Assembly (NCBI GenBank): GCA_022072255.1
Contig: JAJVHZ010000027.1
Location: forward strand, 18,660 to 82,659
Reading direction: 5' to 3'
Length of the DNA: 64,000 nucleotides
Source of the DNA: Gammaproteobacteria bacterium
Lineage (GTDB): Bacteria; Pseudomonadota; Gammaproteobacteria; JAJPIJ01
In this document: piece by piece, positions 57,797-61,718 of the stretch
How the letters are laid out: each line of letters opens with the position of its first letter
Position numbering within the stretch: position 1 is the stretch's first letter
Notes under the pieces: generated by a model
Databases searched by the model: none
What the model saw: only the letters and a program-made list of their open reading frames with translations
What the model was told of the DNA's origin: nothing
Made by a program: the position numbers and the translations under genes

Positions 57797-58315
57797 CTAC
57801 TGGGTCGTGGCCACGATTGGGGGCGTGATGCTGTCTCGTTTGGCTTCAAGGATGGCGGAGTGGATTTCGAAGGTGCTCTGGCAGTGGTCGCGAAGAGCTT
57901 GGTTTTCGTGGTGGAAGATCACTTCCATTCCCGTGAAGAGGTCGGTGTGGTTTCTGAGTACGGTTAGGTTGTGTTCGCTGGCTTCTAGAACGAGTAGGAA
58001 GTGTACTTCCTCTTCCATTCCTTCCGTGAAGAGGTCTGGTCTGGCTTTTTGGAAGTATTCGCGTGCCCGGTGCACCTGGCGGATGGTTTCTCCAACATCC
58101 GCGAGCACCGGCTTGAGTTCGCACACCTGCCAGACCCCGCCTCCCCTTCCCGCTTTACGCTTCCTGAGGACCACGTCCACCACTCCCCGGTCCCCATAGT
58201 GGTTGTAAGGCACCTCACAACCCACAAACTCGAATCCCTCCCGTAAAGAAACCGAAATAAAACTCTGCATGAGGGCCGCATGCTTCCCATCATAGATCGC
58301 CGACTCCAACACCAT
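57797..58315 (-). CDS. PD-(D/E)XK restriction-endonuclease-fold protein
   Basis: EVPYNHYGDRGVVDVVL..VCELKP..DVGETIRQV (D..ExK with following Q helix). Confidence 0.65.
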   Translation of the reverse strand: MVLESAIYDGKHAALMQSFISVSLREGFEFVGCEVPYNHYGDRGVVDVVLRKRKAGRGGGVWQVCELKPVLADVGETIRQVHRAREYFQKARPDLFTEGMEEEVHFLLVLEASEHNLTVLRNHTDLFTGMEVIFHHENQALRDHCQSTFEIHSAILEAKRDSITPPIVATTQ

Positions 58316-58431
58316 GCCTCTCCCACGCAGCAACACCTCTATAAAAAACTTCACCACCACCCCAAAGAAACAACACACGCCATAGGGGGGGGTTTTTTGT
58401 CGGGGGTGTGGGGGTGGTGAAGGGGGGACGC

Positions 58432-58923
58432 CTATTTGGCGTCCTGTTGGATTAGTGTCCAGGTGTGGTGTGAACTGTTCCAGTTGTTGGCTCGTTGGAG
58501 CCGTTTCCTGCATCTTTTCAGGAAGTGTTGGCGGCGGGTTCCGGTTGCTGGTTTGTATTGGGGGTTGCATTTGAAGCAGTTCCAGAACACGGTCCCTCTT
58601 GGGGGATCAATGGCAGGTTGAAGAGGTAGTCCGCAGTGGCACCACGCGTGGAAGGTGAGATATATTTCAGTGTTCTCTCTTGTCCTACTCACCTCTACTG
58701 GCTCTGTTTTCCATATGATCAATTCCCAGATAATCTTTCGTATCTCGTTTTTGATTTCATGCAGTCCCGTGTACATGAAGTATTTGTTGAAGGAGTATGG
58801 GTCTCTGTCGGTTACACTCCTCCAGATCAATTCCTGTAATTCTTCGATTTTTTTGATGAACGTTCCGAGGGTGCTCTTCACGTCCTGGGTTTTTTTGTTG
58901 GTTCTTTCGGTTTCTCCTTTCAT
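58432..58923 (-). CDS. fused A+B protein, tandem unit 3 (coiled coil plus CxC/CxxC domain)
   Basis: MKGET start with SD GGAGG; WCHCG..FWNCFKC..ATG..R..FLK; 163 aa equals 80+83. Confidence 0.7.
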   Translation of the reverse strand: MKGETERTNKKTQDVKSTLGTFIKKIEELQELIWRSVTDRDPYSFNKYFMYTGLHEIKNEIRKIIWELIIWKTEPVEVSRTRENTEIYLTFHAWCHCGLPLQPAIDPPRGTVFWNCFKCNPQYKPATGTRRQHFLKRCRKRLQRANNWNSSHHTWTLIQQDAK

Positions 58924-59129
58924 GTTTTTCTTGCCTCCGATCAGTTTCGATGTATTTTCCTTTTTGTGCTGTGTCTTGTTCTGTAAAGGAGATACGGTTT
59001 CTCCTTGTTTTCCAATCACAATGGTGTCAATAGTGGGTGGGGTTCAGCCCGGTCTTGGAATGGGCCCAAACAACCATTGCTTTTTCCCCTTCCCAAAGGG
59101 GGGTTGCGATATCTGCGGAGGGAGACCCC

Positions 59130-59381
59130 CTAAATGGGGTCCTCCTCTAGCAGTTGTTCCGCGTACCATACGGCATATTGGTCTCCGACTTTATCCATAT
59201 ACTCCTGGAATGATTTCAGGAATTGACGGCGGATCGGTCCGGTTGCTCGCGTAAAATGCGGGAAGCACTGAAAGCAATTCCAGAACAGGAATCCCTTTTC
59301 GGCGTTGTAGGCTGGCTCGACTCGCATTCCACAAACGCATTTGCCGGTGAATCGGGAACCAATTCCATAGGGGAAAGTCAT
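59130..59381 (-). CDS. small CxC/CxxC putative Zn-binding protein B, unit 2
   Basis: RFTGKCVCG..EPA..FWNCFQCFP..ATG..RRQFLK; ATGA overlap. Confidence 0.72.
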   Translation of the reverse strand: MTFPYGIGSRFTGKCVCGMRVEPAYNAEKGFLFWNCFQCFPHFTRATGPIRRQFLKSFQEYMDKVGDQYAVWYAEQLLEEDPI

Positions 59382-59620
59382 GCTCTCACCTCCTGGTTTG
59401 CTGCTGCGTTCAGGAATACCATTTCACTCCAGAGTACGCGGATTTTGGTTTCGATCTCTTTCATTCTCATGTGGACATACTGCCCCTGGTCTTCCGGGCC
59501 GGATTCTCCGCTTCTTGCGACGATGGATTCCTTGAGTCTTCTGGCTTCTGCCGCGAGATCGACAAGACGTTTTTCAAAGTCCCGCATTTGTCTTTTGATG
59601 CTTTTGTTTTTTCCTTTCAT
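59378..59620 (-). CDS. 80-aa coiled-coil protein A, unit 2
   Basis: SD GGAGG; MKGKNKSIKRQMRDFEKRLVDLAAEARRL..EVRA matches the ArdC C-terminal extension. Confidence 0.72.
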   Translation of the reverse strand: MKGKNKSIKRQMRDFEKRLVDLAAEARRLKESIVARSGESGPEDQGQYVHMRMKEIETKIRVLWSEMVFLNAAANQEVRA

Positions 59621-59860
59621 GTTTTCGTACCTCCGTTCTGTTTCAATATTCTTCGTTTCTTTTCAGTCCAGACCGGCTTGAAAGCCGGTGACTGAAGAGC
59701 CTGATTTCGTTTCGCCTTTCTATTCACGCGAAGCGTGGTGGCGTCAATCTGTGGCTTATGGGGATCGGTTCCGATTTCAGAACCGATCCAAGGAAGCCAC
59801 GGTTTCCCATTCGGCTTTTGGTTCCAAATGGGTTTGGCCCGATGTGTGCAGAGAGACCCC

Positions 59861-60112
59861 CTAAGTGGGGGTTTCTTGAATCCGTTCCAGAACATACTGG
59901 GCGCCGTCCCAATCTCCGGCGCGGATCATCTGCTTTCTGAATCTCTTCAGAAAGCGCCGCCGACGGCTTCCGGTTGCCTTTGTGTAAATGGGGAAGCAGT
60001 GGAAGCAGTTCCAGAACACTACTCCGAGCCCGGAATGAAAGGCGGGCTCGACGGTTCCACCACAACAACACTTTCCAGTGAAGCGGGCGTAATGCGGGTA
60101 AGGTGAGATCAT
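59861..60112 (-). CDS. small CxC/CxxC putative Zn-binding protein B, unit 1
   Basis: MISPYPHYARFTGKCCCG..FWNCFHCFP; 83 aa, same length as unit 2; ATGA overlap at 60109-60112. Confidence 0.72.
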   Translation of the reverse strand: MISPYPHYARFTGKCCCGGTVEPAFHSGLGVVFWNCFHCFPIYTKATGSRRRRFLKRFRKQMIRAGDWDGAQYVLERIQETPT

Positions 60113-61299
60113 GCTCTCACCTCCGGGTACCCTTCCGCGTTTAGTCGAACCGTTTCTCTCCAGAGTTTGCGGATTTGTGCCTCGATTTCTCCAATCCTCA
60201 TGTAGAGGTATTTCCGGTGGTCTTCCGGGTCTGGTTCTCCTCTTCGTACAAAGAGGCTTTCTTGGAGTCTTCCGGCCTCTGCCGCGAGTTCGGCTAGCCT
60301 GATCTCCAAGTCCTGCATTTGGTTTTCGATACTTTTGGTTTCTCCTTTCATGTTTTCGTACCTCCGATATGTTTCGATTTGTTTCGATTCTTCCCGGTCC
60401 GAACCGGCTTCTAGGCCGGGGACGGAAGAGCATGATTTCTTAGTGAGTGCCTGGTCTGAGCCATGGAGGCCGGCGAGGATTTCTCTCGCCGTGTCCCGGA
60501 TCGCTTCCAGGGAGTGATAAAGTGTCTCTTTGTCTCCCTGGTAGATTTGGATGTAATCGCTCGATGAGGTGCTGGTGTCCAAACCGATTACCGAACAGAC
60601 CACGAAGGCTACGGCTTCGGCTTCCGTTTCTTTCACTGTCTTGGATGGGTTTTTCTCTCCCGGTTTCTGGTGTAGAATTTCATGCGCGAACTCATGCACC
60701 AAAACAGAGAATTCCTCAGCGGCGGGAAGGCCGGGCCGAATCAGGATTTTTCCGCCTGATGAGGCCCCATCGGCGAGCCCTAAGTCCGGCGTGGATTCGA
60801 TGGCGATTCCTCTCTTCCGAATGGTCGCAACCAAGGAAGAAAGGAGTCCGCCTGGATCGCCCCGGACGCGGGCGAATTCCGGAAGGGGTTTTCCCTCTGT
60901 CTGGTTGATGTCAAAAACGTGGGCCGGACGGAATCCGAAAAGGATCTCTTCCTCGGAATCGGATTCCGTCGATTTCCTATTCCGGACGATGGGGGCAAGG
61001 ATGAGAATTCCTTTCTCACCTTTCCGGACGTTTCTTCCCAACGATTTCCAAGTTTGAAACCCGGCCACGCGAGAGGCATCGGGTTTCTGTGTGCCGATCA
61101 AGAAAACATTCCTCAGGCTGTACCGGGTAAATCTCGCCATAGTGGAAAGGTATTCCTTGAGCGTCTGGCTCTTTCCGTTCTCCAGATCCTGCGCGAGCCT
61201 TTCGAGTGCCTGATCGATCAAGCCGTGGGCGCGGGTTACTTTGGGGTGGGGCGCGCGGGGAGGGGCGCGGATGAGTGGCAAAGCAGCGGGGGAGTTCAT
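60109..61299 (-). CDS. ardC: ArdC-like anti-restriction protein (ssDNA-binding domain plus HExxH zincin) with 80-aa C-terminal extension
   Basis: RYSLRNVFLI..VAGFQTWKSLGRNVRKGEKGILILAP, HVFDINQTEG, LVHEFAHEILH, ETEAEAVAFVVC. Confidence 0.85.
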   Translation of the reverse strand: MNSPAALPLIRAPPRAPHPKVTRAHGLIDQALERLAQDLENGKSQTLKEYLSTMARFTRYSLRNVFLIGTQKPDASRVAGFQTWKSLGRNVRKGEKGILILAPIVRNRKSTESDSEEEILFGFRPAHVFDINQTEGKPLPEFARVRGDPGGLLSSLVATIRKRGIAIESTPDLGLADGASSGGKILIRPGLPAAEEFSVLVHEFAHEILHQKPGEKNPSKTVKETEAEAVAFVVCSVIGLDTSTSSSDYIQIYQGDKETLYHSLEAIRDTAREILAGLHGSDQALTKKSCSSVPGLEAGSDREESKQIETYRRYENMKGETKSIENQMQDLEIRLAELAAEAGRLQESLFVRRGEPDPEDHRKYLYMRIGEIEAQIRKLWRETVRLNAEGYPEVRA

Positions 61300-61718
61300 G
61301 CTCTCCCCCCCGTGTGCTTTGCCTGGTCAATAGCCGCCCCGATTTCCGCGCGGTTCTTATCTTTGCGTGTCGCGTAGATCGTATACACGGGCACGATAAA
61401 CGGTTTCGGGATTTGCCAGTCCTCAAGTTCTGTCTTGAGTGGTTCCGGATCGAGTTCTCCCTTGATTCTCCGAAGGACTGATTGCAGAACTTCAATTTCC
61501 TCCAAAGGGAAAAAGACCACTTGTTCATAGCCGCGCTTTCGTCTTAGATCCGGATCGATGACTCTTAAGTAAACCGTCTTGCGAACCTCCGGCGGCGTTA
61601 CTAACGGGCTGTATCTCCTCGCTAGTGCTAAATTTCCTTCTTCTTCATGCACTCCCACTAGGAAGCGCCCGATTCTTATTTCACCCAATCCGCGTTTACT
61701 CAAATGGGCGAACATCAT
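61296..61718 (-). CDS. hypothetical protein
   Basis: SD GGAGGTG; ATGA overlap with ardC. Confidence 0.65.
   Translation of the reverse strand: MMFAHLSKRGLGEIRIGRFLVGVHEEEGNLALARRYSPLVTPPEVRKTVYLRVIDPDLRRKRGYEQVVFFPLEEIEVLQSVLRRIKGELDPEPLKTELEDWQIPKPFIVPVYTIYATRKDKNRAEIGAAIDQAKHTGGRA

Follow-up and report, generated by a model that had tools for sequence, protein, structure and literature searches.

In a 64,000-nucleotide (nt) stretch of a Gammaproteobacteria bacterium genome (assembly GCA_022072255.1, contig JAJVHZ010000027.1, positions 18,660 to 82,659 of the forward strand; hereafter the window, in whose coordinates positions are given), three copies of a small zinc-ribbon gene that we call B each end with a stop codon held inside a GC-rich hairpin. 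The B genes belong to an array of three tandem A-B units on the minus strand, in which each unit encodes an 80-amino-acid (aa) coiled-coil protein (A) and an 83-aa B protein; the array follows an ArdC-like gene, and the element that carries it is of conjugative type. Judged from sequence, we consider it the probable, if far from certain, explanation that these hairpins are terminator-derived, were inherited with each B module and are now poor in U-tracts, so that they may serve as leaky, translation-sensitive terminators, as stabilizers of RNA 3′ ends, or as both. The hairpin is most likely an ordinary kind of element that was repeated through duplication of the gene module. The result is mainly a clean negative—a covarying stop hairpin is best explained by a terminator-type hairpin, and not by recoding or cassette recombination—and, given this arrangement, translation-dependent read-through from one tandem module to the next is predicted.

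Hairpins over the B stop codons and their conservation

All three hairpins lie on the minus strand. Hairpin 1 covers the B1 stop (59852-59876; AGAAACCCCC/ACTTA/GGGGGTCTCT, with TAG at 59861-59863 and one A.C mismatch), hairpin 2 covers the B2 stop (59118-59147; GAGG-A-GGACCCC/AUUUAG/GGGGUCU-C-CCUC, 11 pairs, with TAG at 59130-59132; as coding-strand DNA, GAGGAGGACCCC-ATTTA(G)-GGGGTCTCCCTC) and hairpin 3 covers the stop of a fused A3B3 gene (58426-58444; GGACGCC/AAATA/GGCGTCC, with TAG at 58432-58434). The 5′ arm is formed by the last three to four B codons and the 3′ arm by the first untranslated bases. Folding energies (RNAfold) of hairpins 1, 2 and 3 are −14.2 (range −13.3 to −14.2), −22.0 and −13.8 kcal/mol, with z scores against dinucleotide shuffles of −2.4, −3.3 and −6.0, respectively. 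On the minus strand of the window, 1.2–1.5% of 31-nt windows fold at −12 kcal/mol or better, and each of the three B stops is the centre of such a window.

Coding-strand reading and folding thus bear out the preliminary description of this DNA, made from the sequence alone, in its claim that a TAG stop inside a hairpin ends all three B genes. Its further claim of a 5-nt loop, with TAG lying across loop and stem, holds for units 1 and 3, in which TAG comprises the final two loop bases plus the 3′ stem's first base, but not for unit 2. There, five G face four C, and the minimum-free-energy (MFE) fold slightly prefers a 6-nt loop with the entire TAG unpaired, the 5-nt-loop register being an alternative fold. 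The compensatory C-G to G-C swap reported for hairpin 3 is present (alignment columns 12/22).

The three copies are paralogs, i.e., they reflect one origin followed by conservation rather than three independent events, and conservation, not coincidence, is therefore the meaningful test. We aligned, without gaps, eight distinct stop contexts (alignment A3): window units 1–3 and, from related loci designated by the prefix L, unit 1 of L012, units 2 and 3 of L034, L005 and L011. In this alignment 91.7% of the cells are paired, and four of the nine pairs have changed on both sides, the C-G to G-C swap included. None of 500 column shuffles reached the covariation score, and sliding the 3′ arm by one to three columns, as a control, gave pairing of only 32–65%. 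One-sided changes mend or lengthen the stem: in L012 unit 1, a change from TCTC to TTTC repairs the A.C mismatch (GGGGGTTTCT), and in L034 unit 2, where one G is lost, the stem re-registers to 10 base pairs (bp). The non-coding 3′ arm, in other words, follows the coding 5′ arm.

The B proteins themselves are 40–48% identical, with the last 25 or so residues poorly conserved (at closer range, B1 and L012 differ by 10 synonymous and 3 non-synonymous codon changes), and the hairpin is kept in every member of the close subfamily despite this divergence. Pairing that persists while the proteins diverge to this extent, together with the double-sided changes, argues that the structure is selected, as the preliminary description had proposed; the covariation across homologs that it named as a check is present among both paralogs and orthologs, and provides good but not overwhelming support from eight related sequences. 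It had also named homologs without the stem as a finding that would speak against selection: the stem is present in the whole close subfamily, but the more distant homologs L020-24, L042 and L043 have no hairpin at the stop.

Terminator-type hairpins in the B family

B is a small basic zinc-ribbon protein with the core RFTGxCVCG...FWNCFxCFP, and it represents a rare, uncharacterized family that repeatedly accompanies ArdC on conjugative-type elements. The family comprises 41 cluster representatives (E<1e-3) among 1.84 billion proteins. No B homolog was found in 400 other genomes of the same phylum, a plasmid database (searched by tblastn for B and for the Replic_Relax-like protein encoded upstream of the array) and viral contigs yielded no homologs, and B has no Pfam or PHROG match. 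Its motif resembles that of ribosomal protein bL31 (CxCG...CxxCxPxF), the PDB sequence profile match (E 0.3) being not significant. An AlphaFold model of B2 consists of a zinc ribbon and two helices (pLDDT, the predicted local distance difference test, 88); its C-terminal residues, for which the 5′ arm of the hairpin codes, are modeled at low confidence and are probably disordered. Foldseek searches with the model returned weak generic zinc-ribbon matches only, and no known RNA-binding protein. B recurs beside ArdC in very different elements (L040, L043), and a fourth, divergent copy is present in the same genome (contig C65:16427-16663), close to a copy in an Anaerolineae metagenome-assembled genome.

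Two distant homologs end in a hairpin with a canonical U-tract. The gene at L041 (P0013, 123 aa) ends GGGAGTC-GTCGTA-GGCTCCT, followed by TTTTTTTG, a tract of seven U (U7); its TAG fills the final two positions of the loop plus the first 3′ stem base, as in window units 1 and 3, the hairpin is called by a terminator scan, and the next gene is convergent. L018 has a bulged 12-bp hairpin whose loop contains TAA and after which comes CAATTTTTTTT (U8). L044 and L040 have hairpins over the stop or abutting it, and the group of L004, L017, L019 and L025, which includes the C65 copy, has a GC hairpin ~25 nt after the stop. Tails richer in U also occur in some close relatives (L011, GGGGUCUUUUCUC / UCUUUUCUC; L012, GGGGGUUUCUUUCC / UUUCUUUCC). 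In the homologs, only the sense strand carries the U-tracts, which speaks for a function in the sense RNA. By sequence, then, predicted terminator-type hairpins close B repeatedly within the family, and the geometry with the stop in the loop is also seen together with a canonical U-tract.

The window hairpins have the GC-rich stem-loop of a canonical Rho-independent terminator (5 or more bp and a short loop; here a 7–11 bp stem and a 5–6 nt loop at the end of a cistron), but lack its U-tract (about 5 or more U in the 8 nt after the stem), as the tails that follow hairpins 1, 2 and 3 (UCUCUCUGC, CGCAGAUAU and CCCCUUCAC) confirm, and a terminator scan made no call at them on the minus strand. 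With the U-tract absent, we do not file them as canonical intrinsic terminators. The preliminary description was correct in this respect; it was too quick, however, to dismiss termination, as the U7 of L041 and the U8 of L018 make a terminator role of the window hairpins plausible.

If the hairpins do descend from terminators, the GC-rich stem-loop that each B gene carries as part of its own module would be an inherited 3′ boundary homologous, or at least equivalent in position, to the Rho-independent terminator that closes B in distant relatives, with the U-tract having degenerated to a pyrimidine-rich tail in the window lineage. Such a hairpin may act as a weak terminator and/or shield the upstream mRNA from 3′-to-5′ exonucleases. 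As the stop codon is inside the hairpin, a terminating ribosome must melt it: a ribosome at the stop would cover ~10 nt past the A site, and the hairpin could not fold during termination of B. RNA 3′ ends would then form mainly when translation of B is out of step with RNA polymerase, and transcription would otherwise proceed to the following A-B unit or to the PDDEXK gene located after the array. Sensitivity to the ribosome, which is expected here, has been measured for tR2 in E. coli, where a stop codon at 5 bp from the terminator cuts termination from ~90% to under 10% and termination recovers once translation is uncoupled, the terminating ribosome being the cause (PMC4824070). By this logic, we predict that RNA polymerase reads through to the following unit as long as B is translated, and that 3′ ends form when it is not. 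The microcin C operon provides a comparison whose polarity is opposite to the one predicted here: between mccA and mccB, an intrinsic terminator just after a short open reading frame (ORF) is described as dependent on ribosome occupancy of that ORF, yielding an abundant short transcript and a rare long one, but ribosome binding there induces termination and stabilizes the RNA (PMC4231749).

Several observations weigh against a terminator-derived hairpin. The defining U-tract of canonical intrinsic terminators is missing from all three window copies, which, like their close relatives, have pyrimidine-rich, U-poor tails; same-strand genes lie 120–240 nt downstream, and the hairpins stand, three in tandem, inside an apparent single operon. 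Wobbles and mismatches (4 G.U vs. 3 A.C) do not tell the sense strand from its complement. Moreover, a profile of 1193 gene ends of the host genome (64% GC, vs. ~53% in the window) has no peak of hairpins at stop codons. The same profile has a weak excess of hairpins at +20 to +45, and we reject the stop-centred hairpin as the general terminator style of the host, there being no genome-wide enrichment at stops. U-tract-less “I-shaped” terminator-like hairpins have been predicted in high-GC bacteria, where their activity is disputed. The B hairpins resemble these as stable GC hairpins at a gene end without a U-tail, but differ in that the host genome has no such general enrichment at stops.

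Alternative roles for the stop hairpin

That the hairpin has some role in RNA stabilization or processing is plausible. A stricter version, in which it stops no transcription at all and only blocks 3′ exonucleases after endonucleolytic cleavage of the spacers, setting segmental half-lives, would suit the U-tract-less window copies, the same-strand genes downstream, the highly structured spacers (z −5.9) and the conservation of the hairpin along with its gene module. REP (repetitive extragenic palindromic)-type or puf/pap-operon stabilizers are likewise stem-loops between cistrons that could set segmental mRNA stability; the B hairpin, however, belongs to no dispersed repeat family and extends into the end of the coding sequence rather than standing in a spacer. 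As the U-tract-bearing equivalents in distant homologs point to an origin in termination, and as the hairpin would be melted in each round by the ribosome that reaches the stop, leaving a poor permanent 3′ cap, we give this version a small but real chance. We give a slightly smaller one to the possibility that the hairpins with a stop in the loop act as a series of ribosome-gated attenuators, or as template hairpins of the incoming single strand that pace early transcription. The attenuators, in a leading-region establishment operon, would let RNA polymerase pass to the next A-B module only during translation of the B before it. Either, if true, would be a so far undescribed metering of tandem anti-defense modules right after conjugative entry. 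Purely DNA-level structures, with the hairpins folding in the transferred strand of a conjugative leading region as sites of priming, pausing or protein loading, are improbable. The position of ArdC near a Replic_Relax-type gene, the clustering of hairpins at 58.2–61.9 kb with none in the neighboring 50.9–58.2 kb of the minus strand, and the greater stability of the unit 1 hairpin on the plus strand (−19.0 vs. −13.3) are consistent with such sites. On the contrary, at 19–30 nt the hairpins are far below the size of Frpo/ssi structures (folds of more than 100 nt with −35/−10-like boxes or a primase site) and have no promoter-like hexamers, their register is fixed to a stop codon, i.e., a landmark of translation, the U-tracts in L041 and L018 are specific to the strand of the sense RNA, and the wobble pairs show no strand preference.

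Binding of the hairpin by the B zinc-ribbon protein (or by A) on its own mRNA, as autoregulation of translation termination or stability, is less probable again: B is small, basic and zinc-ribbon-like with its weak bL31-like motif, and the hairpin always travels with B, but no loop or stem sequence is conserved beyond coding and pairing (the loops read ACUUA, AUUUA, AAAUA, GUCGUA and GUAAGG), the homologs without a stop hairpin listed above would lack the site, and structure comparison with the B model turned up no known RNA-binding protein. The preliminary description had offered a recombination site that generated the array, and we find a site-specific or hairpin-mediated (attC-like) site that generates or shuffles A-B cassettes very improbable. 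Elements do hold one, two or three units, and homology does break near gene ends. However, the breakpoints of unit-3 presence or absence fall ~35–45 nt downstream of the hairpin (blastn, MAFFT): the block upstream of the PDDEXK gene is common to elements without unit 3 (L011, L005) and elements with it, and this block begins only at that distance. Unit homology starts inside the 3′ end of ArdC and runs at least 40 nt past the hairpin, both arms always come from one unit type, copies of the motif are not scattered through the genome, and the only tyrosine recombinase matches (PF00589) on the contig (C9) lie at 5–6 kb, ~72 kb away. Integron attC sites are similar in being imperfect palindromes that close a cassette ORF at its 3′ end and often take in the stop codon, in arrays of cassettes; they are 57–141 nt long, have R''-L''/L'-R' boxes and need a nearby IntI, whereas the B hairpins span 19–30 nt, contain no GTT core (of the GTTRRRY type), have no adjacent integrase and lie apart from the breakpoints. 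Least probable of all is the other role suggested earlier, a stimulator of programmed stop-codon readthrough (or of frameshifting). All close copies have TAG with a structure that starts at the stop, and the zero frame stays open for 26–37 codons after TAG in the three window units, but the extension is as short as 10 codons (L011) or 18 codons (unit 3 of L034), the extensions (in-frame and ±1, 10 contexts) are unrelated beyond the hairpin-encoded residues, and the open frames are explained by a stop-poor, C/A-rich composition.

A dispersed repeat of the repetitive extragenic palindromic or bacterial interspersed mosaic element (BIME) kind, or of the miniature inverted-repeat transposable element (MITE) type, was also considered and rejected, since a regular-expression search of the 4.27 Mb genome found the core pattern only at B ends and in three unrelated chance matches. 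Rfam (E-value mode, 54–64 kb) gave no family match in that region; one sub-threshold chance match lay elsewhere.

The ArdC-A-B array and its neighborhood

On the minus strand, the gene order is a Replic_Relax-type gene, a 158-aa ORF, the ArdC-like gene, the three A-B units and a PDDEXK_18-like gene. The ArdC-like gene (60352-61299) is the first large gene of the operon; it encodes an ArdcN domain (PF08401, E 1.8e-11), and its HExxH motif, HEFAHEILH, can be read directly from the ORF translation. A1 (60109-60351) is an 80-aa coiled-coil module fused in frame to the ArdC ORF, and the ATG of B1 (59861-60112; 83 aa, a CxC...CxxC zinc-ribbon protein) overlaps its stop (ATGA). A2 (59378-59620) encodes an 80-aa coiled-coil protein and B2 (59130-59381) one of 83 aa, and A3 and B3 form one fused gene (58432-58923; 163 aa from the ATG at 58923), also called as 163 aa in relatives. 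The PDDEXK_18-like gene (57797-58294) comes after the array in all relatives. The order ArdC-A-B-PDDEXK_18 is kept in L005-L011, and metagenomic relatives have one, two or three A-B units; contigs that encode the B2 protein occur in many public samples.

The state of fusion varies. ArdC and A1 make up one 396-aa ORF in the window (60109-61299) and in its nearest relatives, but are separate in L005-L008, where proteins of 313 and 80 aa are encoded 6 nt apart (L005 2814-4004); with the A3B3 fusion counted, the same modules show three different fusion states. At two junctions the ATGA overlap sits in a hairpin loop with the Shine-Dalgarno sequence in the 5′ arm: between the 158-aa ORF and ArdC (61286-61311; GGGGGGGAGAGCATGAACTCCCCC) and between A1 and B1 (60100-60123; GAGGTGAGAGCATGATCTCACCTT). 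This is the classic architecture of translational coupling. The A2/B2 junction is without a hairpin of this kind.

The B1-A2 spacer contains a long imperfect palindrome (59746-59805; 29-nt arms, 76% complementary, core GGATCGGTTCTGAAATCGGAACCGATCC, −19.8 kcal/mol), which is conserved in L012, L031 and L034 (blastn), and the spacer as a whole folds with z = −5.9. In the +1 frame, an ORF of 92 aa (59617-59895) runs across hairpin 1 and the full length of this spacer, its TGA overlapping the ATG of A2 (ATGA), and it is intact in L012, L038 and L039. Its 21 differences are split evenly, 7/7/7, among the three codon positions, 4 changes being synonymous and 15 non-synonymous; with no codon-position bias, we reject it as coding and regard it as a by-product of the stop-poor composition.

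Between hairpin 3 and the PDDEXK_18 gene, a long-range hairpin followed by six U (~58345-58422) was considered as the real terminator of the operon and rejected, as its z score is −2.1 in the window but about 0 in L011 and L005. Within this region only one block, GGTGGTGGTGAAGTTTTTTATAG (58340-58365), is conserved, and the long-range hairpin that includes it forms only in some elements. The block lies ~40 nt upstream of the PDDEXK_18 start, is kept in L005, L011 and L034 whatever unit precedes it, and is probably a promoter or 5′ untranslated region (5′-UTR) signal of the PDDEXK_18 gene.

Farther along the element, at 36000-58000, GC skew on the plus strand rises to +0.41 and AT skew is −0.41, the coding minus strand being rich in C and A. 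The skew ends abruptly at the start of the A-B array, and the minus strand at 50.9–58.2 kb has no strong hairpin. At the other end of the array, just upstream of the A1 Shine-Dalgarno sequence, the coding strand has two tandem direct copies of ATCGAAACA (60370-60389); single or degenerate copies precede A2 and A3, and the repeat may be an operator or a 5′-UTR motif.

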